A stretch of 64,000 nucleotides of DNA from a virus (taxonomy: Duplodnaviria > Caudoviricetes): the IMG/VR virus record IMGVR_UViG_3300029705_000041; one strand, written 5' to 3'. Under the pieces are notes generated by a model. It had not been told where the DNA came from. It worked only from the letters and a program-made list of their open reading frames with translations, and made no database searches. Shown piece after piece: positions 17,367 through 48,196 of the stretch. A program made the translations under genes and the position numbers. Position 1 is the first letter of the stretch. Every line of letters begins with the position of its first letter.

Positions 17367-17536
17367 AAGGAGTAATTTAGATGACTTCTGATACTCATAC
17401 ATTTCCAAAAGGAAAAATGTTTTTCTTTGTATATCAAAATGATGTTTCTCCATTAAAAGTTTATAATGAGAATCCTGATGTAAAAGTATGCGAAGATAAA
17501 CTTATTATAAACAAATTAAAAAAAGGAGTTAAAGAT

Positions 17537-18589
17537 ATGCCATATTATTATAGTAACGAAATTGTATTCAGAGGGCATCCCGATAAGGTTTGTGACCAAA
17601 TAAGCGATGCTCTCCTTGATGAATTTTTAAAACAAGACAAAAATAGCAGATGTGGAATCGAAACTGTTGGTGGCAAAGGTAAAATCTTTATTACCGGAGA
17701 AGTTACATCCAATGCGGAAGTTAATGTAGAAAATGTTGTAAAATGTGTCCTTGAAGATATTGGATATAATACTGATTATGAGATTATCAATAATATCGGA
17801 CAGCAATCACCAGATATAGCACAAGGTGTAGATATTGGTGGAGCAGGAGACCAGGGAATGATGTTTGGATATGCTTGCCGAGATACTGAAAGATTTTTGC
17901 CGACAGCAATGGTTATTTTACAAGAGTTATCAAGAACTTATGATGCTCTTTGTAGAAAAGACAAAAGATTTTTACCGGATGGCAAAGCTCAAATTACCGG
18001 ATGTTATGATGATAATAGAAAATTATTATCTATTAAGGATTTTACGATTTCTTATCAGAACACAGAGGTTGAAAGAGAAAAAACCGATAGTATTTTAATT
18101 GAATATGCAACAAATATTTGCAAACGATTTGGCATTAATTTAATTGAAAGTTTCCATATCAATCCTACCGGAAAGTTTTTAATAGGCGGTTTTGATGGCG
18201 ATGCAGGATTAACAGGAAGAAAGATAGTAGTTGACAATTATCATTCATTCGCAAATGTAGGTGGCGGAGCTTTTTCGGGAAAAGACCCCACCAAGGTTGA
18301 CCGTTCAGCAGCATACAAAGCAAGACAACTTGCGATTGAATGTCTTACAGAACTGCCGGATGTTAATTGGTGTGAGATTCAGTTATCTTATGCTATTGGT
18401 ATGGAACTTCCACTCGGTGTATATGTAAGAACTGATAAAGGTGTTTTTGAAAGTAAATATTGGATTTACAATGAATGTACACCTGAAAGAATTATCGAAG
18501 ATTTGAAATTGAAAAATGTTACATATTATGAAACTGCAAAGTTTGGACATTTTGGAGATGAAAAATTTTCTTGGGAAAAGAAGGTGTAA
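17537..18589 (+). CDS. metK: S-adenosylmethionine synthetase
   Basis: GHPDKVCDQISD, GAGDQG, GGGAFSGKDPTKVDRS; AGGAG RBS before 17537 (frame also open from 17381). Confidence 0.95.
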   Translation: MPYYYSNEIVFRGHPDKVCDQISDALLDEFLKQDKNSRCGIETVGGKGKIFITGEVTSNAEVNVENVVKCVLEDIGYNTDYEIINNIGQQSPDIAQGVDIGGAGDQGMMFGYACRDTERFLPTAMVILQELSRTYDALCRKDKRFLPDGKAQITGCYDDNRKLLSIKDFTISYQNTEVEREKTDSILIEYATNICKRFGINLIESFHINPTGKFLIGGFDGDAGLTGRKIVVDNYHSFANVGGGAFSGKDPTKVDRSAAYKARQLAIECLTELPDVNWCEIQLSYAIGMELPLGVYVRTDKGVFESKYWIYNECTPERIIEDLKLKNVTYYETAKFGHFGDEKFSWEKKV

Positions 18590-19147: not shown

Positions 19148-19416
19148 AAGTAGCAATTAATTTAAACACCATTACGGATATTGAAAAGTTTACAGCATTA
19201 GTACAAACCGTTAAATCAGATGTTCGTCTTACAGGCAAAGATGAAAACGGAAATGACTGGAATTTATCTGCGAAGTCTTTACTTTGTTCTATTGTAGTTT
19301 CGACAAAACTGCAAAAGGATAGAGAACATACGGCTCATGAAGTGGATTGGAATACTATCTATTGTGAGTGTGAAGAAGATATTTACAGTTTAATCCAAGA
19401 TTATGTTAAAGTTTAA
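19144..19416 (+). CDS. HPr-like protein
   Basis: About 90 aa, SAKSLL resembles HPr Ser46 region; His15 not evident. Confidence 0.5.
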   Translation: MKVAINLNTITDIEKFTALVQTVKSDVRLTGKDENGNDWNLSAKSLLCSIVVSTKLQKDREHTAHEVDWNTIYCECEEDIYSLIQDYVKV

Positions 19417-19568
19417 AAATAAGACAGAAAAACAATAAATAAAATGTTGTTTTTATTGTCTGACTAATAAAGTACCCTTATTTGAGGGTTAAATAAAGAA
19501 ATTTACGTTACTTATAAGGGAGTAAAAAGTTTTGTTAGCTTTTAAGCTCCCTAAATCGGAGGTTATTT

Positions 19569-20384
19569 ATGAGTGATAAAAACAACACTTCAATACAGCA
19601 TAGTTATGAGCTTGTTAATTTCTGCGAATTCGATAGATTTGCCGAACAAAGTTACTGCGCTGTACATGGAGTTGATAAAAACTTAAATCTTGGCGATATT
19701 ACAAAGGTTGACGAAACAAAATTAAAACCATTTAACATGATTTGTGGTGGCTCACCTTGCCAGGATTTCAGTGTTGCCGGAAAGCAAAAAGGAAGTGTTT
19801 GGATATGTCAAGATTGCCTAGATGACAATGGTATGCCCTTTGAGTACAATCCTTTAACTGTGCATTACACCAAAAGGAGTAAATGTCCTCATTGTGGCAG
19901 CGAAAATATAGACAAATCTAGAAGTTCATTACTTGTTGAATGGTTAAGAGTTATACAGGCTAATAAGCCAACATGGGGAATTTACGAAAATGTAAAAAAT
20001 ATCGTGGGAAAATCATTTGAAATGACATTTAAAATGTTTATAGATGAATTACACGAATATGGCTATAATACTTATTTTAAAGTTTTAAATGCTAAAGATT
20101 ATGGTATTCCTCAAAACAGAGAAAGAGTTTACTTAATTATTATTTTAAAAGAGTTTGATAATGGAAAATTTAAGTTTCCTGAAGGATTTGATAATGGAAT
20201 CAGATTAAAAGATATGCTTGAAGATGAGGTTGAAGAAAAATATTACATAAATACTCCTAAAGCACAAGAGTTAATAGATGATTTAATCAAGACCGGAAAA
20301 CTTGATAAGACAATCTCTAATACTGTTCGTGCAGGGGGGAGAGGTTCAGTAGACCGACATCAATGGGATATGGTTCAAGTTTAA
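19569..20384 (+). CDS. C5 DNA methyltransferase, catalytic piece (motifs II-VIII, Zn-finger insertion)
   Basis: CEFD, GDITKV, GGSPCQDFS, ENV, QNRERVY; lacks motifs I, IX, X. Confidence 0.85.
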   Translation: MSDKNNTSIQHSYELVNFCEFDRFAEQSYCAVHGVDKNLNLGDITKVDETKLKPFNMICGGSPCQDFSVAGKQKGSVWICQDCLDDNGMPFEYNPLTVHYTKRSKCPHCGSENIDKSRSSLLVEWLRVIQANKPTWGIYENVKNIVGKSFEMTFKMFIDELHEYGYNTYFKVLNAKDYGIPQNRERVYLIIILKEFDNGKFKFPEGFDNGIRLKDMLEDEVEEKYYINTPKAQELIDDLIKTGKLDKTISNTVRAGGRGSVDRHQWDMVQV

Positions 20385-20527
20385 TTAACACAGCTTTATT
20401 TTCTAAACAGTGCAGCAAATTCGATAAAGAAATTAATGTGGCTAATACATTACTCGCAAGAGATTATAAAGGTTTTGGAAATCAAAGTATGAACGGTGTA
20501 ATCCAATATCACAAAAAGATGGAGTAG
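20363..20527 (+). CDS. stand-alone MTase TRD-like peptide
   Basis: VANTLLARDYKGFGNQSMNGVI. Confidence 0.55.
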   Translation: MGYGSSLINTALFSKQCSKFDKEINVANTLLARDYKGFGNQSMNGVIQYHKKME

Positions 20528-20531
20528 CTTA

Positions 20532-21127
20532 ATGAATAAATTAATTCAAATAGGAAACATGAGAACTGATTCTGAAAATTTTAAAAATCCTCAAACTGGC
20601 AGAGTATATTCTATCCAAGGTCTTGCACCTACATTGAATACTTGTCAGGGGGAGACAGACAACCAAAAATAATAGTTAAGGTGGATAAAAAAATGAAAAT
20701 GATATGTGAAAGAAGAATGGATGAGGGATTGCGTACATTTAAAAATGATGTTGTAGGCACCATCAGAACCATAGATTCGGGGGGAGACAAAAGAGTGATT
20801 GAAAACAAAAAAGATGATAGTGGTTATCGTATAAGAAAATTGACTCCACTTGAATGTTGGAGATTAATGGGATTTTCTGATGAAGATTTTTATAAGGCTA
20901 AAGCTGCTGGAGTTAGTAATTCGCAATTATATAAACAAGCCGGTAATTCAATTGTTGTCGATGTACTTTATTACATATTTAAAGAATTGTATGATGCAAT
21001 GCCATATTTATTTGACGATTTAAAAGTTGGGAGTTATTTTTCTGGAATTGGAGCTTTTGAGAAAGGTCTTGACAGATTATATGAGGGTATTAATTCCGGA
21101 AATTTTATCAAACCGCAAGTAATATAA
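20532..21127 (+). CDS. C5 MTase second piece: TRDs + motifs IX, X, then motif I (-1 shift at G5 20648-20652; alternative start 20693)
   Basis: APTLNTCQG|GDRQPKI, RKLTPLECWRLMGF, KQAGNSIVV, then KVGSYFSGIGAFE. Confidence 0.8.
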
Positions 21128-21134
21128 CGAATAC

Positions 21135-21284
21135 TTGCGGGGGAGAAAAATCATAATTTATGATGATTATAATTCCAATATCAGAAAAGAACAAAATACT
21201 ATGGGTACTTTAACTACCAACATAGGTCATAGTTCTTTGAGGAATGCTTATAAAATCATCGAAACTAAAAGTAATAATGAATAA
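21135..21284 (+). CDS. stand-alone TRD-like peptide
   Basis: IIIYDDYNSNIRKEQNTMGTLTTNIGHSSLRNAYKIIE. Confidence 0.5.
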   Translation: MRGRKIIIYDDYNSNIRKEQNTMGTLTTNIGHSSLRNAYKIIETKSNNE

Positions 21285-21468
21285 AAATAACAATCTTAAT
21301 AATACTAAACCAGTTCTCGTAGGGGGACTTGGGAAAATCAACTTTGGAAAACAATATCGTCAAGGAAATAGAGTATATGATTCCAGAGAAATAGCAATGT
21401 GTTTAACGGCACAGCCTTTAGGTAATGCTGGTGGTTACAGTTATTTATATGTTGTTAAAGCAAGATAA
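21277..21468 (+). CDS. stand-alone TRD-like peptide
   Basis: QGNRVYDSREIAMCLTAQPLGNAGG. Confidence 0.6.
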   Translation: MNKNNNLNNTKPVLVGGLGKINFGKQYRQGNRVYDSREIAMCLTAQPLGNAGGYSYLYVVKAR

Positions 21469-21658
21469 CTATAGCTATGTTGCAGTTTTAAAATATCAAA
21501 GAACAGAATATGGAAAGCAAATCCGAAAGGCTTATGAATCTGGAATGATAAAAGAAAAGAGATGCAATATGCGAGAGGTAGTACCTCGGACAGATGGTAT
21601 TTCAAATACATTAACAACAGTATTAAAGGATAATTATGTAATTGAAAAACGGAGATAA
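21449..21658 (+). CDS. stand-alone TRD-like peptide
   Basis: PRTDGISNTLTTVLKDNYVIE. Confidence 0.6.
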   Translation: MLLKQDNYSYVAVLKYQRTEYGKQIRKAYESGMIKEKRCNMREVVPRTDGISNTLTTVLKDNYVIEKRR

Positions 21659-22183
21659 ATGAAAATGGAAAATATACGAAAAGATTTAATTGATAAAGAG
21701 TTGAAAAGAGGTAATAAATCTTCACAATTTCATTATCAAAAATTGTCTAATAAATTTTTGGATTGGCTATTCAGACATTATTATACTCTTGAATTAACTG
21801 AACATTTTTATGATAGTGAACCGGATATACCGGTTGAATGGCAAGAGAGAAATGAAACTGGATATATTTGGGATGACAAAGAGTTTAGAAAACTTTGGCG
21901 AAAATTATGCGAAGAACATGAAGAAAAAAGAATTCAATTTTGTAATTGGATAGAAGTATTTGGCAGAGGTATTTGGTTTATGAGCCAAAAAACTGTAGAT
22001 AAGATTTCTAAAGATTATTTAAAAAGAATTCGTTCAGTTCCAATAAAGCGTAGAAAAGAAAGAATTTATTTGGCACAGGAAAAAGATTACATTTTCATTT
22101 ATTGGTATTGCAGAGACATTGAAAAGATAGACATTTGGTGGATTATGAAAAAGAAAACAAGTGAAAGAAGGAGAAAAGAATGA
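21659..22183 (+). CDS. hypothetical protein
   Basis: 174-aa ORF with RBS. Confidence 0.6.
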   Translation: MKMENIRKDLIDKELKRGNKSSQFHYQKLSNKFLDWLFRHYYTLELTEHFYDSEPDIPVEWQERNETGYIWDDKEFRKLWRKLCEEHEEKRIQFCNWIEVFGRGIWFMSQKTVDKISKDYLKRIRSVPIKRRKERIYLAQEKDYIFIYWYCRDIEKIDIWWIMKKKTSERRRKE

Positions 22184-22407
22184 GAGACACAAAGACTTCA
22201 AAAACTAAAAAAGTGCTACAGCATTTACAAAAGTATGGTTCTATCACAAGTTGGGAAGCCATCAATAAATATGGTGCAACAAGATTAAGTGCTATAATTT
22301 TTAATCTTCGTAAAAAGCATCGCATTGAAAGTGTAAGTCAGATTTTTACTGACCGATATAAAAATCAGTCTACTTTTGCAAAATACATATATTGTGGAGA
22401 AAGATAA
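22180..22407 (+). CDS. winged helix-turn-helix protein
   Basis: ITSWEAINKYGATRLSAIIFNLR. Confidence 0.75.
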   Translation: MRDTKTSKTKKVLQHLQKYGSITSWEAINKYGATRLSAIIFNLRKKHRIESVSQIFTDRYKNQSTFAKYIYCGER

Positions 22408-40018: not shown

Positions 40019-40597
40019 ATGTCAATTAGTTTAGTAAAAGGTCAGAAAATTGATTTGACAAAAGGAAACGGTGGTCTCAATAGCGTTGTTTTTGGATTAG
40101 GTTGGGACACCAACAAATACGATGGAGATAATGATTTTGATTTAGATGTTTCTGTTTTCTTGACGGATGCAACAGGAAAAGTAACTGGAGAGCAGGATTT
40201 CATCTTCTATAATCAGACTTCACATCCAAGTGGTGCAGTGGTTTATTCGGGCGATAATAGAAATGGTGAAGGTGCCGGAGATGACGAAACAATGAAAGTT
40301 GACTTATCGAAAGTTCCTACAAATATCGAAAAGATTAGTTTTGTTGCGACAATTCATGAAGCAGAAGCAAGATTGCAGAATTTTGGCATGGTTGATAATT
40401 CTTATATTCGTGCATATAACACAGATACAAATGAAGAATTGTTTAAGTACGAATTGAATGAAGATTTTTCATTAGAAACAGGTATTATTGCAGGAGAACT
40501 TTACAGACATAATGGCGAATGGAAGTTTGCAGCTGTAGGTTCTGGTTATGCTGGTGGCTTAACCACTATAGCACGTAATTTTGGTTTAAATATTTAA
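40019..40597 (+). CDS. terD: TerD family protein
   Basis: GLGWD, DLDVS, GDNRNGEGAGDDE. Confidence 0.9.
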   Translation: MSISLVKGQKIDLTKGNGGLNSVVFGLGWDTNKYDGDNDFDLDVSVFLTDATGKVTGEQDFIFYNQTSHPSGAVVYSGDNRNGEGAGDDETMKVDLSKVPTNIEKISFVATIHEAEARLQNFGMVDNSYIRAYNTDTNEELFKYELNEDFSLETGIIAGELYRHNGEWKFAAVGSGYAGGLTTIARNFGLNI

Positions 40598-40615
40598 TTT
40601 TAGGAGGATAAAAAT

Positions 40616-41188
40616 ATGTCAATTAGTTTATCAAAGGGTCAGAAGATTAGTTTATCAAAAGAGGTTGAAGGTTTAAGTAAGGTTGTTGTTGGTCTTGGTT
40701 GGGATGCTGCAAAGAAAGGTCTTTTTGGTGGACAGCATAATATCGACTGCGATGCATCAGCGATTATTCTTGACAATGAGGGTAAGTATGTAGATTGCGT
40801 TTATTATGGCAATACTTCTTCGGTTTCCGGCAATGTATTCCATCACGGCGATAATCTCACAGGAGATGGTGACGGAGACGATGAACAGATTACAGTAAAT
40901 CTCGCAAATATGCCATCAAATGTAGGCAAGATTGTATTTGTTGTTAATATTTATGCTTGTGAATCCAGAAAGCAAGATTTCGGAATGATTCAGAACGCAT
41001 TTATCAGACTTGTTGATTCTTCAAGTAGCAAAGAAATTTGTAAGTATAATCTTTCTGAAAATTATGACGGTAAGACAGCTATGATTTTTGCGGAAGTTTA
41101 TAAGCATGATAATGAGTGGAAATTCAATGCTATCGGTCAGGGAACAGTAGATAAGAGCATTTCTGAACTCACAAAGAGATATAAATAA
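40616..41188 (+). CDS. TerD/TerZ family protein
   Basis: GLGWD, DCDAS, GDNLTGDGDGDDE. Confidence 0.9.
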   Translation: MSISLSKGQKISLSKEVEGLSKVVVGLGWDAAKKGLFGGQHNIDCDASAIILDNEGKYVDCVYYGNTSSVSGNVFHHGDNLTGDGDGDDEQITVNLANMPSNVGKIVFVVNIYACESRKQDFGMIQNAFIRLVDSSSSKEICKYNLSENYDGKTAMIFAEVYKHDNEWKFNAIGQGTVDKSISELTKRYK

Positions 41189-41202
41189 GGAGGAAACTAG
41201 AT

Positions 41203-41784
41203 ATGTCAGTAATGTTAAGTAAAGGTGAAAAGGTAGATTTAACCAAGAATAATCCTACTCTTAGTAAAATAAGAGTAGGTCTTGGCTGGGACACAAATCA
41301 GTATGATGGCGAAGCAGATTTTGACTTAGATGCTTCTGTATTTATGCTGAAAGCAAACGGCAAAGTTGGCAGTGATAAGGATTTTGTATTCTATGGTAAT
41401 TTAGCTCATCCAAGCCAGAGTGTTGTACATACCGGAGATAATAGAACCGGAGAAGGAGACGGAGACGATGAAACAATTAAGGTTGAATTGTCAAAAGTTC
41501 CTGCGGATTATGAAAAGCTTGTTGTAGTGGTTACTATTTATGATGCAGATAAGAGATTGCAGAATTTTGGTATGGTATCAAACGCTTATATTCGTTTAAT
41601 TGACGAAAATAACGGAGAAGAAATTTTACGTTACGATTTGAGCGAAGATTTCTCAACACAGACAGCACTTGTTATTGGTGAAATTTATAAGCATGGCAAC
41701 GATTGGAAATTTAACGCAGTTGGCAGCGGCTATAATGGTGGTTTAGCGCAGTTGTGTTCAGCATACGGTATCGAAGCAAACTAA
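41203..41784 (+). CDS. terD: TerD family protein
   Basis: GLGWD, DLDAS, GDNRTGEGDGDDE. Confidence 0.9.
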   Translation: MSVMLSKGEKVDLTKNNPTLSKIRVGLGWDTNQYDGEADFDLDASVFMLKANGKVGSDKDFVFYGNLAHPSQSVVHTGDNRTGEGDGDDETIKVELSKVPADYEKLVVVVTIYDADKRLQNFGMVSNAYIRLIDENNGEEILRYDLSEDFSTQTALVIGEIYKHGNDWKFNAVGSGYNGGLAQLCSAYGIEAN

Positions 41785-45559: not shown

Positions 45560-46316
45560 TGAGATATATTGCAAGTTGTAGTTTCGGTAAAGACTCTCTT
45601 GCAATGGTTCTCCGCCTGATTGAAGAATGTAAACCACTTGATGAGGTTGTATTTTATGATACCGGAATGGAATTCGGTGCAATATATAATAATCTCAAAA
45701 AATTAAAAAACATTCTTGCTGAAAAGAATATTAAGTTAGTGATACTAAAACCAGAAGTAAGTTTTGAATATAAAGCTTTTGAAATTCCGGTAAAGAGCAG
45801 GAAAGGTCAAGGTTATCATTACGGCTATTCTTGGTGCGGGGGTGTTGTAGATGGGGAACTACCGATAAAATAAGAATTGTTGATAAATATTGTGAAAGTG
45901 AACCAACAAAAGTATATGTTGGTATTGCCATAGATGAACCTAAGAGAATAGAAAAGGAAAGAAAACCTTATAAAATATTTCCTTTGGTTGAATGGGGTAT
46001 GACGGAAAAAGATTGTTTGGAATACTGCCGCAATAACGGATGGGATTGGAAAGAAGAAACTCCAAATGGATATATTGACCTTTATGACATCTTAGACCGT
46101 GTTAGTTGCTGGTGTTGTTCAAATAAAAATCGTAAAGAGCTTAAAAATATTTATCTATATTTACCGTACTATTGGAATAAGTTAAAAGAATTTCAATCAA
46201 AAACTGAAAGACCTATGAAAAAATATTCTAAAAAAGGTATTTTATATGGAAATGTTTTTGATATGGAGAAAATATTTGAAATAGAAACAAAAAGAGAAAA
46301 AGGAAGCGTAATATGA
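45559..46316 (+). CDS. PAPS reductase-family (PP-loop) protein, -1 frameshift at G5 45838-45842
   Basis: SCSFGKDS, DTGMEF | WCGG-CCRWG, GIAIDE..R, RVSCWCC. Confidence 0.8.
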
Positions 46317-47172
46317 ATTATAAAAATCCATTCAATTATATTGGAGCAAAATTCAAGCTATTACCACAAATACTTCCTTTATTTCCTTCGCAAATCCAAA
46401 ATTTCATTGATTTGTTCGGGGGAGTGGCGAAGTTGCATTCAATGTAAATGCTCAAAAAGTTATTTACAATGAAAAAAGTGTTGCGATGGTTAATATGTTT
46501 GAATGTTTTGATGATAATTTTGTTAAAGAAGTTGAAGAAGTAATTTCAAAATGGAATCTTTCAAAAAATAACAAGGTAGAATTTTTAAAGCTAAGAGAAT
46601 ATTATAATGATAATCTTGATACTTTGTCGAATAGAGAAAAAGCTGTAATTCTATATTGTTTATTAACTCATGCGTTTAACTATCAAATTGCATTTAACTC
46701 TAAGGGCGAATATAATATGCCTTCAGGAGCCGGCAGGAGTTATTTTAGTCCACAATTAAAAAATAAATTAATTGACTACATAGCAAGAAAAAATGAAATA
46801 AATATAGTTTTTCAGAATAACGATTTCTGCGATATGGACATAAATAATCTTCCAGCAGCTAAAAACACTTTTATATATGCTGACCCACCTTATCTTATCA
46901 CTACAGGTGCTTATGAAAGAGATTATTTCTGTAAATGGTCAGAAGAATATGAGATTAAATTACTTGATTTTTTAGATAAACTTAATGATAAAGGTTATAG
47001 ATTTGCACTATCAAATGTTTTGGAACATAAAGGAAAATCAAATAATTTACTTAAAGATTGGTCAAAGAAATACATAACTCACTTTTTGAACAAGGATTAC
47101 AAAAATTGTAATTATCAGACAAAAGATAAGAGTGCCAATAGTAGTGTAGAAGTTTTGATTACAAATTATTAA
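46313..47172 (+). CDS. Dam-like DNA adenine methylase, -1 frameshift at G5 46418-46422
   Basis: NPFNYIGAKFKLLPQI, DLFGG|SGEV, YADPPY, EVLITNY. Confidence 0.85.
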
Positions 47173-47260: not shown

Positions 47261-47533
47261 ATGCATTATTTCAAATTTGGCGAAGCTATTGAAAATTTAA
47301 AGAATGGCAAAGCTATGTCTCGACAGGGTTGGAATGGTAAAAATGCCTATATTTATTATATTCCGGCTAATAACTACAATGCTGAAACAGAAGTTGCTAA
47401 AGCAGAATTTGGTGATAAAGTTCCTTATGGTGCTTATATTGCCATGAAAACAACGCAAGGGAATGTTGTTCCTTGGGTAGCTTCACAAACAGATATTTTA
47501 GCAGAAGATTGGTTTATTGTCGATAAGAAATAA
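47261..47533 (+). CDS. DUF2829 / Tad2-like anti-defence sponge protein
   Basis: FGEAIE.LK.G...R.GWNGK...PWVASQTDILAEDW. Confidence 0.8.
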   Translation: MHYFKFGEAIENLKNGKAMSRQGWNGKNAYIYYIPANNYNAETEVAKAEFGDKVPYGAYIAMKTTQGNVVPWVASQTDILAEDWFIVDKK

Positions 47534-47563: not shown

Positions 47564-48196
47564 TTGGCAGAAAAAAATATTTTTGAATCCCTTAATAATG
47601 TGGATTTAACAGAAAAAGTAAAATCAAAAAATAATCTTACATACTTACCATGGAGTTCTGCATGGTCAGAAGTAAAAAGACGTTATCCAGATGCAAATTT
47701 CAGAATTATTCCACAGGTAATTGATGAAGGTGGAAATACACGTCCTTGGCATGATGATGGTAAAACAGGTTGGGTAGAAGTAGGGGTTACAATTGACGGT
47801 CAGGAAATTATTGAAACTCTTGCAATTATGGACTTCAAGAATAAGTCTATTACAGCCGACCAGATTACATCTGTTGATGCAAATAAGTCAATTAAGCGTT
47901 GTCTGGTAAAAGCTTGTGCTATGCATGGTCTCGGCTTGTACATTTACGAGGGCGAAGAATTGCCGGAAGAAGCATCAAAGACATTAGAATTGCAGGATGA
48001 AATTAAAGAATTGATTTCTAAAAAATGTGCGCTTTCTGATAAAGCAAAAAGTAAAGTTGCTGATTTATGTAAGGCGGCAGAAAAAGAAGCTGACCCAACT
48101 TTAGATGATGATGCAATTACAGGCAATCCTAAGAATATCGAAGATGTTGACATCTTAACTAATTTAAAAAAGCAGCTTTTGGCTGTTAGAAAATAA
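47564..48196 (+). CDS. Sak/DUF1071 (Rad52-like) single-strand annealing protein
   Basis: LTYLPWS.AW, MDFKNK, KRCLVKA.AMHGLGLYIY.GE. Confidence 0.85.
   Translation: MAEKNIFESLNNVDLTEKVKSKNNLTYLPWSSAWSEVKRRYPDANFRIIPQVIDEGGNTRPWHDDGKTGWVEVGVTIDGQEIIETLAIMDFKNKSITADQITSVDANKSIKRCLVKACAMHGLGLYIYEGEELPEEASKTLELQDEIKELISKKCALSDKAKSKVADLCKAAEKEADPTLDDDAITGNPKNIEDVDILTNLKKQLLAVRK

Follow-up and report, generated by a model that had tools for sequence, protein, structure and literature searches.

A 64,000-nucleotide stretch of phage DNA (Duplodnaviria; Caudoviricetes; IMG/VR record IMGVR_UViG_3300029705_000041), here called the window, carries at positions 19569-21658 a cytosine-5 DNA methyltransferase (C5-MTase) divided between two genes and accompanied by small, staggered open reading frames (ORFs). 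The window is apparently part of a large gut-type phage: nearly all of its genes lie on the + strand, its GC content is about 31%, and near-identical DNA was found on a 155.5-kb contig. An earlier note, written from the letters of the window, had described this locus as a split, circularly permuted C5-MTase with a cassette of stand-alone peptides resembling target recognition domains (TRDs). The cistrons, modules, G runs, repeats, and signals of the locus described below are all on the + strand, except for an invertible segment to which no strand is assigned.

Two of the ORFs carry the catalytic motifs. The first, the alpha cistron or piece A (19569-20384; 271 aa), contains motifs II-VIII (motif strings GGSPCQDFS, ENV, and QNRER), a zinc-ribbon insert, and a first recognition module, TRD1 (ISNTVRAGG-RGSVDRHQWDMVQV). 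It matched PF00145 with an E value of 5e-44, lacks motif I, and starts approximately 12 residues ahead of motif II behind a strong Shine-Dalgarno sequence (SD; -10.7 kcal/mol). The second, piece B (20642/20693-21127; 144-161 aa), consists of a TRD, motifs IX-X (covering PF00145 profile positions 260-322), and then a C-terminal motif I, SYFSGIGAFE; its motif strings are RKLTPLEC, QAGNS, and FSGIGA. The C5-MTase motif set I (FxGxG), IV (PCQ), VI (ENV), VIII (QxRxR), IX, and X (GNS) is thereby complete, over two ORFs. The beta chain expected from the window (20693-21127) would begin at an internal ATG with a AAGGTGGA SD and comprise the module mod4 (ICERR...TIRTIDSGG), motifs IX and X, a linker, and motif I.

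Besides A and B, five smaller ORFs in staggered frames each contain a TRD-type signature, for a total of seven TRD modules: TRD1 at the end of A, mod2, mod3, mod4 (in B), T5, T6, and T7. The first four are placed between motifs VIII and IX. Module mod2 (20363-20527; ANTLLARDYKG type) is read in the -1 frame relative to alpha and has its own ATG with a weak SD, while mod3 (20532-20672; QIGN...APTLNTCQ-GG type) begins the beta cistron behind a GGAG SD. The three tail modules are T5 (21135-21284; IIIYDDYNS...GTLTTNIG), which lies behind a G run and is without an SD of its own; T6 (21244-21468; NFGKQYRQGNRVYDS..AMCLTAQP), a mini-ORF containing a G run; and T7 (21425-21658; LKYQRTEYGK...GISNTLTTVLKDN), a mini-ORF without a G run in the +1 frame relative to T6. 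The SDs of T6 and T7 are weak or absent. No match was returned by PHROGs and Pfam searches of the mini-ORFs or by an Rfam search of 19300-21800. The split pieces, the motif order, and the approximately seven modules described in the earlier note were all confirmed at the positions given there. Its reading of 'APTLNTCQGG' as a single frame did not hold; the printed frame runs ...CQGETDNQK to a stop, while the continuation GG-DRQPKII belongs to the -1 frame, with a G5 run (five consecutive G) at the crossing.

Two further explanations for the interrupted frames were rejected. An alternative genetic code does not apply, as the breaks are frame changes and not in-frame stops. Introns or inteins do not apply either, as there is no intervening sequence and no Rfam match.

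Alignment with canonical enzymes located the permutation. By BLASTP against the M.SPRI protein (GenBank K02124), B residues 14-99 corresponded to SPR 347-429 (63% identity), B 110-126 to SPR 4-20 (71%), and A 13-250 to SPR 27-253 with a 38-residue insert after motif IV. M.HhaI aligned from its residue 34 on to residue 14 of a relative, placing A residue 13 at about HhaI residue 34. Together, these alignments identify the enzyme as a circularly permuted form of an SPR-like multispecific MTase, with its new ends between motif I and motif II. The insert (19794-19920; A residues ~76-113) is a 38-residue CxxC...CxxC zinc ribbon with weak matches to Pfam zinc-ribbon and HypA families. It is not found in M.SPRI or M.HhaI and is conserved across the permuted family.

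Six IMG/VR relatives, mostly on 100-164-kb contigs, were 69-78% identical to A. One of these (L005) encodes a single intact ORF of 487 aa in the order II-VIII, three TRDs, IX, X, I. A search with this ORF gave at least 8000 matches, and motif I was last in 119 of the 120 best database relatives. NCBI labels the matches just 'DNA (cytosine-5-)-methyltransferase'; they include proteins from Lacrimispora, Anaerobutyricum hallii, and uncultured Eubacterium. The single-chain permuted enzyme is widespread, occurring in ~150-kb phages and in Lachnospiraceae prophages, and IMG/VR contains 447 loci, mostly on ~150-kb contigs. The variable regions of relatives differ in make-up, with 3 to 7 or more TRD modules shuffled into many combinations. 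In-chain homologues of mod2-mod4 lie between motifs VIII and IX in single-chain relatives (83 such relatives for mod2). Modules of the T6/T7 type match the variable regions of two multispecific MTases, those of rho11s and H2; T7 has a partial in-chain match in the relative P0080, and in L005 the T6 and T7 types form one continuous -1 frame ORF.

These comparisons establish two fixed rearrangements: the permutation (II-VIII, TRDs, IX, X, I) and a two-cistron split in the clade of the window. Intact genes are the rule in the wider family, with 79 of 87 loci containing one intact ORF and essentially no run of G5 or longer. In contrast, the window and five of its relatives (L001-L004 and L006) each have a broken gene with 4-5 runs of G5-G7, and every member of this G-run clade is broken. 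In all clade members the chain ends after TRD1 or mod2 and the next module begins with an ATG behind an SD, so the alpha/beta split is fixed. More than 1300 clusters of truncated alpha-type proteins were present in the protein database. Scans with the conserved S1 junction pattern (S1 being the first G run) recovered only the IMG/VR contigs already known, five in number, and a single additional contig from a metagenome. The earlier note had proposed that one continuous ORF in relatives would point to decay or assembly error. Such ORFs are what most relatives have, but they do not refute this reading, since the split clade is conserved in its own right and shows selection.

The G runs coincide exactly with the Gly-Gly pairs of the TRD modules (RAGG, CQGG, DSGG, TCGG, and LVGG). 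Of the 14 runs of G5 or longer in the window, 5 fall within this locus, which makes up 3.3% of its length (expected, ~0.46). Elsewhere in the window GGG accounts for 3.6% of Gly codons, and GGG GGG was used at none of 57 Gly-Gly pairs. Likewise, in 68 distinct relatives with an intact gene, none of the 208 Gly-Gly pairs of the TRD regions forms a G5 run. Lineages ~25% diverged in protein have kept the runs at the same positions. The G runs are a derived, selected feature.

Every module is also under purifying selection in its own frame, as the earlier note had suggested should be checked. The proportion of nonsynonymous differences (pN) was 0.09-0.24 against a saturated synonymous proportion (pS) of 0.5-0.9, equal to the catalytic core and with no internal stops; pN/pS was ~0.15-0.3 in each case. 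For example, pN and pS were 0.09-0.16 and 0.75-0.88 for mod2, 0.16-0.24 and 0.70-0.93 for T5, and 0.15 and 0.73-0.84 for T6. Where two frames overlap beyond S1, conservation follows the TRD1 frame, and the frame leading into mod2 is only linker. A decaying pseudogene, or miscalls at homopolymers, might be suspected from the intact single-ORF relatives and from the fact that 3 of the 5 runs are out of phase in the window. Decay is contradicted by this selection in all modules and frames, by the conserved run positions, and by the strongly unusual codon choice at the runs. Artefact is contradicted by control G5 runs and 14 runs of at least five A within the locus that show no miscalls, bar one A7 run, and by the recurrence of the same alleles in independent ENA, JGI, and Logan assemblies. 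We regard decay or artefact as very improbable; on these patterns, the split and the permutation are neither decay nor assembly error.

The length of each run sets which modules can be read together. At S1 (20334-20339; G6 in the window, encoding Gly-Gly of TRD1), G6 gives a complete TRD1 followed by a stop, G7 a fusion of alpha to mod2, and G5 an immediate stop. S3 (20648-20652) is G5 in the window, which is the OFF state, with G6 being ON. S4 (20779-20784) is G6, the ON state, and encodes the Gly-Gly of mod4. It also forms a predicted SD for a GTG at 20795 (duplex, -10.1 kcal/mol), which would start a TRD-less IX-X-I chain of 110 aa if S4 were OFF. S5 (21139-21143) is G5 and OFF, with G6 being ON, while S6 (21322-21326) is G5 and ON, with G6 being OFF.

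To compare run lengths among close relatives, we collected 14 near-identical genomes, defined as contigs from ENA, JGI, and Logan assemblies that encode exactly the A or the B protein of the window. Within the coding locus, indels among these genomes were confined to S1, S3, S4, S5, S6, and one A7 run. Lengths were G5 (2 genomes) and G6 (12) at S1; G5 (12) and G6 (2) at S3; G5 (3), G6 (9), G7 (1), and one interrupted 'locked-on' allele (GGGAGG, in L107) at S4; G5 (7), G6 (6), and G7 (1) at S5; and G5 (9) and G6 (5) at S6, where the first 8 genomes had 4 of each. The counts at S1, S3, and S4 carry a bias, since an exact A or B protein was the basis for picking the genomes. At S5 and S6, which are free of this ascertainment, 56% of runs differed between pairs at a substitution divergence of 0.19%. 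L093 and L110 have no substitution over 2053 sites yet differ at S4. Outside this set, L002 and L006, which come from different samples, are identical over 2150 nucleotides except for G5 versus G6 at S1. By comparison, 7.6 kb elsewhere in the near-identical genomes contained no indels, and four G5 runs there were invariant. The A7 run (20687-20693), situated in the spacer between SD and ATG of mod4, is A6 in L108 and L111; this alters the SD spacing and would break the frame of a mod3-mod4 fusion.

These alleles were reflected in the gene calls. For beta, every on/off combination of its two runs was found: 198 aa with both runs in phase, and 46+144, 88+110, and 46+110 aa. In L095 and L097, where S3 is G6, mod3 is fused to mod4. 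Because mod3 and mod4 join into one 198-aa beta chain when the runs are in phase, they are segments of a chain and not separate proteins. Among 120 alpha-type clusters, a script assigned 49 to complete TRD1, 13 to mod2 fusion, and 20 to immediate stop, leaving 38 unclassified; after a sample of the unclassified tails was read, the estimates became ~50, ~28, and ~22. These runs are thus in-frame homopolymers whose length varies among near-identical genomes and sets the reading frame, as in contingency loci. From this variation we infer heritable, reversible switching within a single population.

The same alleles bear on whether the runs might instead be sites of programmed recoding, at which ribosomal -1 slippage or transcriptional stuttering yields some full-length protein and differences in DNA length are secondary. 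Most OFF alleles are exactly one G short, such that a -1 slip on G_GGG would restore the consensus (GG-DRQPKII and SGG-DKRVIE). In addition, GGG is a rare codon here, and the family already uses one -1 frameshift signal. However, some OFF alleles deviate in the other direction (G7 at S4 and S5, G6 at S6), and on this ground uniform -1 recoding at all runs was rejected. The near-identical genomes include alleles that are in phase without recoding, no conserved structure was found downstream of S1 (z +1.9), and several low-efficiency shifts in series would leave very little full-length product. Recoding at the runs is therefore an unlikely explanation.

A G run outside the locus was also observed at a methyltransferase gene. 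A Dam-like MethyltransfD12 gene (46313-47172) is broken at a G5 run (46418-46422) within its S-adenosylmethionine motif (DLFGG, then SGEV), one G short, leaving a 44-aa N-terminal part and a 228-aa ORF. This run was G5 in 5 of 5 near-identical genomes, with no switching seen.

Expression of alpha appears to be subject to a different kind of switch. A pair of 12-bp inverted repeats, TGTTGTTTTTAT at 19445-19456 and ATAAAAACAACA at 19576-19587 (the latter within alpha codons 3-7), flanks a 119-bp segment (19457-19575); the arms extend to 15 nucleotides, are 93% complementary, and lie 119 nucleotides apart. The segment contains a hairpin with a variable G run (~19517), the SD GGAGG, and the alpha ATG with the first two codons. 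In L107, L108, and L111, positions 19457-19575 are present as the perfect reverse complement (100% identity over an 80-nucleotide core); these make up 3 of 9 assemblies whose selection took no account of orientation. When flipped, alpha is without its SD and ATG and its frame is closed three codons upstream, giving gene calls of 215 versus 271 aa. The repeat arms are kept with covarying changes in L001, L002, and L004, and are absent from L003 and from the intact L005. With its flanking inverted repeats and its occurrence in both orientations among near-identical genomes, this segment has the properties of an inverton. Relatives carry 1-4 tyrosine recombinases, and some also large serine recombinases, elsewhere in the genome.

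Further variation was seen in and beside this cassette. The 5' arm (19517-19522) of the hairpin AGGGAG...CTCCCT, ~50 nucleotides upstream of the alpha ATG, occurs among near-identical genomes as AGGGAG, GGGGAG, GGGGGAG, and GGGGGGAG, and may be a further tract that affects alpha expression. At ~19268-19428, L094 and L107 have a different ORF of 105 aa in place of the 3' part of the upstream 90-aa gene, a local gene replacement beside the inverton.

A third device lies at the end of beta. A slippery heptamer, A_AAT_TTT (21100-21106), is located in the zero frame 7 codons ahead of the beta stop, and 6 nucleotides past it is a hairpin of ~10 bp (CCGCAAGTA, a 10-nucleotide loop, and TACTTGCGG; 21113-21140) with the beta stop in its loop. 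The heptamer was in the zero frame in 85 of the 85 loci carrying it, and GGA AAT TTT is invariant while adjoining codons vary synonymously. The hairpin of the window has a predicted stability of -14.4 kcal/mol (z -3.2). As the RNAalifold consensus was off register, the structure was written by hand and tested against controls. Across 38 distinct relatives, 94.6% of cells were paired versus 41-48% in slid controls, and changes on both sides were seen in 8 of 10 pairs, which 0 of 500 shuffles reached.

The -1 frame opens 8-13 codons ahead of the MTase stop in nearly every locus, including those with an intact gene, and remains open for a median of 66 codons past it, versus 5 for the +1 frame. 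This -1 frame encodes further TRD modules and is without a start of its own. The site thus combines an in-frame X_XXY_YYZ heptamer, a 6-nucleotide spacer, a covarying hairpin, and a conserved coding -1 ORF, as expected of a programmed -1 frameshift, and a fraction of ribosomes would pass here from the end of beta into the tail TRDs. In the lineage of the window this passage would be gated by S5. With S5 at G6 (L093, L096, and L098) the -1 frame is unbroken from the heptamer through T5 (63 codons), while with G5, as in the window, the frameshifted reading ends after 9 codons. In a few relatives (P0094, P0039, and P0041) tail modules are fused in frame, with P0094 having the T5 module after motif I. 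Some relatives without the heptamer have instead a C5-C9 run at the tail junction (~5860-5880 in L002 and L006; near the MTase stop in L009, L013, and L021), which in L009 is C9 with the tail fused in frame. This suggests a poly-C switch that replaces the frameshift signal. Both the invertible start cassette and the frameshift signal had been missed in the earlier note.

Programmed -1 frameshifts are known from E. coli dnaX and phage lambda G/GT. The signal described here shares with them an in-frame heptamer, a 6-nucleotide spacer, a stable hairpin, a nearby zero-frame stop, and a startless -1 ORF. Unlike those cases, the extension adds DNA-recognition modules to an MTase, for which we found no report in the literature searched.

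The small ORFs can also be viewed as free specificity subunits, in which mod2, T6, T7, and truncated mod3 are TRD peptides of 45-77 aa that dock in trans on a TRD-less alpha/beta core, and the G runs switch the peptides. T6 and T7 fit this description: purifying selection acts on both, yet in this lineage neither can be joined in cis to alpha or beta. In T6, moreover, the run S6 is close to the 5' end of the mini-ORF, like a classical on/off switch. TRD-less alpha (S1 at G5) and TRD-less 110-aa beta (from the GTG) are common alleles. A start codon precedes each module in this clade, but not in intact relatives. In contrast, mod3 and mod4 are clearly one beta chain when in phase, the SDs of T5, T6, and T7 are absent or poor, and relatives always have these modules as parts of a chain. 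To our knowledge, a TRD severed from its chain at both ends is without precedent, and none was found in the literature searched, which counts against free subunits. We consider this arrangement possible but doubtful, and have similarly little confidence in its specific form, a TRD-less core (S1 at G5, beta from the GTG) with T6, T7, and mod2 as free specificity subunits in trans. Only T6, T7, and perhaps mod2 lack a cis route in this lineage. The interpretation in the earlier note is supported in part. Of the possibilities raised there, modules 'joined by recoding' agreed best with the data, in that changes in G-run length join or cut modules and the -1 signal would reach the tail.

Our data favor, with a probability of roughly 70%, a combinatorially phase-variable, split, permuted, multispecific orphan anti-restriction C5-MTase of a ~155-kb phage. 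The enzyme would descend from the SPR/phi3T multispecific type. Alpha carries motifs II-VIII with TRD1 or TRD2, and beta carries TRDs and motifs IX, X, and I; by analogy with M.AquI and engineered split C5-MTases, the two probably reassemble non-covalently into one catalytic domain. Slipped-strand changes in G-run length would shift the frame such that a module is fused to its neighbor, cut off, or bypassed. Internal SDs and starts (ATG 20532, ATG 20693, and GTG 20795) would give ribosomes a new start beyond an OFF run and so keep up production of the IX-X-I part. Flipping of the 119-bp cassette, with its SD and ATG, between the 12-bp repeats would turn alpha on or off, and -1 slippage at the heptamer and hairpin would add the tail. 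For the window, the predicted state is alpha TRD1 on, beta mod4 on, mod3 cut, T5 unreachable, and T6 open. Each phage lineage would then methylate a different subset of up to seven targets, which may hedge against hosts that differ in their type II and methylation-dependent restriction systems.

Several observations weigh against this proposal. Every inference about expression is drawn from sequence. The G5-G7 runs are shorter than classical contingency tracts, which are usually 8 or more, and per-generation switching may therefore be slow. Differences in run length were seen between assemblies from different samples, not within one population. Since control G5 runs of equal length are invariant, the excess variation points to tolerance or selection and not necessarily to a higher mutation rate. 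No recombinase gene was found in the 64-kb window to invert the cassette. T6 and T7 lie in successive +1 frames, and in this lineage neither a run state nor the -1 signal connects them with alpha or beta, which leaves part of the locus unexplained by a cis model; these modules may be translated as free peptides or reached by another route. Finally, the proposal gives no account of how a TRD after motif I meets the DNA cleft. An AlphaFold2 model of P0094 (44-sequence alignment) had a mean predicted local distance difference test score of 44, with the TRD region and tail unstructured.

Each ingredient of the proposed phase-variable enzyme has precedents. The Bacillus phage multispecific C5-MTases M.SPRI, M.Phi3TI, M.Rho11sI, and M.H2I, from the Trautner laboratory (cited through PMC8936443), are likewise phage orphan C5 enzymes with several tandem TRDs of ~40-50 aa on one catalytic core. 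However, they are single chains in canonical I-X order with all TRDs always expressed, while the present enzyme is permuted and split, its modules are separately interruptible, and it has tail modules beyond motif I and a zinc-ribbon insert after motif IV.

With natural permuted C5-MTases (M.BssHII, M.Alw26I, M2.Eco31I, M.Esp3I, and M2.BsaI) it shares a motif X covalently joined to motif I (PMC5944983). Type H permutants (the M.BssHII group) have their new N-terminus within the variable region and IX-X before I-VIII, while the N-terminus of the present enzyme falls after motif I and ahead of motif II. In the 2018 REBASE survey of that study, each of the 27 natural permuted C5-MTases was cut within the variable region, and a cut between motifs I and II was not among them. 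The nearest engineered construct in the literature searched is cp35M.MpeI, for which protection was reported after induction.

Split C5-MTases that complement in trans are also documented (PMC5944983, with its references to M.AquI and to Posfai 1991), both pieces being required for activity. Like M.AquI and engineered split enzymes (references 45-47 of PMC5944983), the present enzyme has its catalytic domain on two chains with the break in or beside the variable region; by its stops and SD/ATG signals, two chains divided at the variable region would be translated separately. M.AquI has canonical order and one fixed specificity, while here the second chain also brings motif I and alternative TRDs flank the break.

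In bacterial phasevarions and hsdS invertons (PMC4889913, PMC7672463, and PMC11868660), homopolymer length or inversion similarly sets MTase production and specificity stochastically. Those systems are cellular type I, IIG, or III enzymes, usually with one tract of at least 8 units or with shuffled hsdS halves. In contrast, the present system is a phage C5 enzyme with five short tracts, one per specificity module, and an inverton that contains an SD and start codon only.

In the literature searched, which was incomplete and did not extend to REBASE, we found no description of a phage C5-MTase that is permuted in this way, has G-run switches for individual modules, has an inverton at its start codon, or gains a TRD tail by frameshifting. 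A possible precedent for the tail TRDs is M.phiBssHII, reportedly described by Sethmann et al. in 1999 as having 'TRDs at separated locations' (title cited through PMC8936443).

Several neighboring genes were recorded. A full-length S-adenosylmethionine synthetase gene with three MetK Pfam domains (17381-18589) lies 1 kb upstream of the MTase locus, and L002 and L006 have a different S-adenosylmethionine synthetase-like gene directly downstream of theirs. The region 21659-22407 encodes a 174-aa conserved protein without a family match and then a 75-aa HTH_39 protein, which are always 3' of the locus in the clade (L001, L004, and L093-L114). Gene calls on near-identical contigs further include tandem TerD-domain proteins (window 40019-41784), a 90-aa Tad2-like protein of the anti-Thoeris type (47261-47533), and a Sak-type single-strand annealing protein (47564-48196).

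Phage MTases are usually viewed as fixed shields against restriction. Here, one locus with three stochastic devices (five G runs, an inverton, and a ribosomal frameshift) could yield dozens of methylation states from ~2 kb, and would hedge between hosts that restrict unmethylated DNA and hosts that restrict methylated DNA. If the less probable free subunits were real, this would be the first C5-MTase whose recognition subunits can be exchanged and are each phase-variable, analogous to the S subunits of type I enzymes, and it would offer a ready-made set of parts for programmable 5-methylcytosine (5mC) writers. The family supplies a naturally occurring C5-MTase whose permutation falls between motifs I and II, which the 2018 REBASE survey had not found in nature, as well as a natural split pair that would need reassembly and a library of compact TRD modules. 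These are of use for understanding target recognition by C5-MTases and for engineering sequence-specific 5mC writers. In many phage genomes, such loci are wrongly annotated, either as pseudogenes or as 'hypothetical' mini-ORFs.

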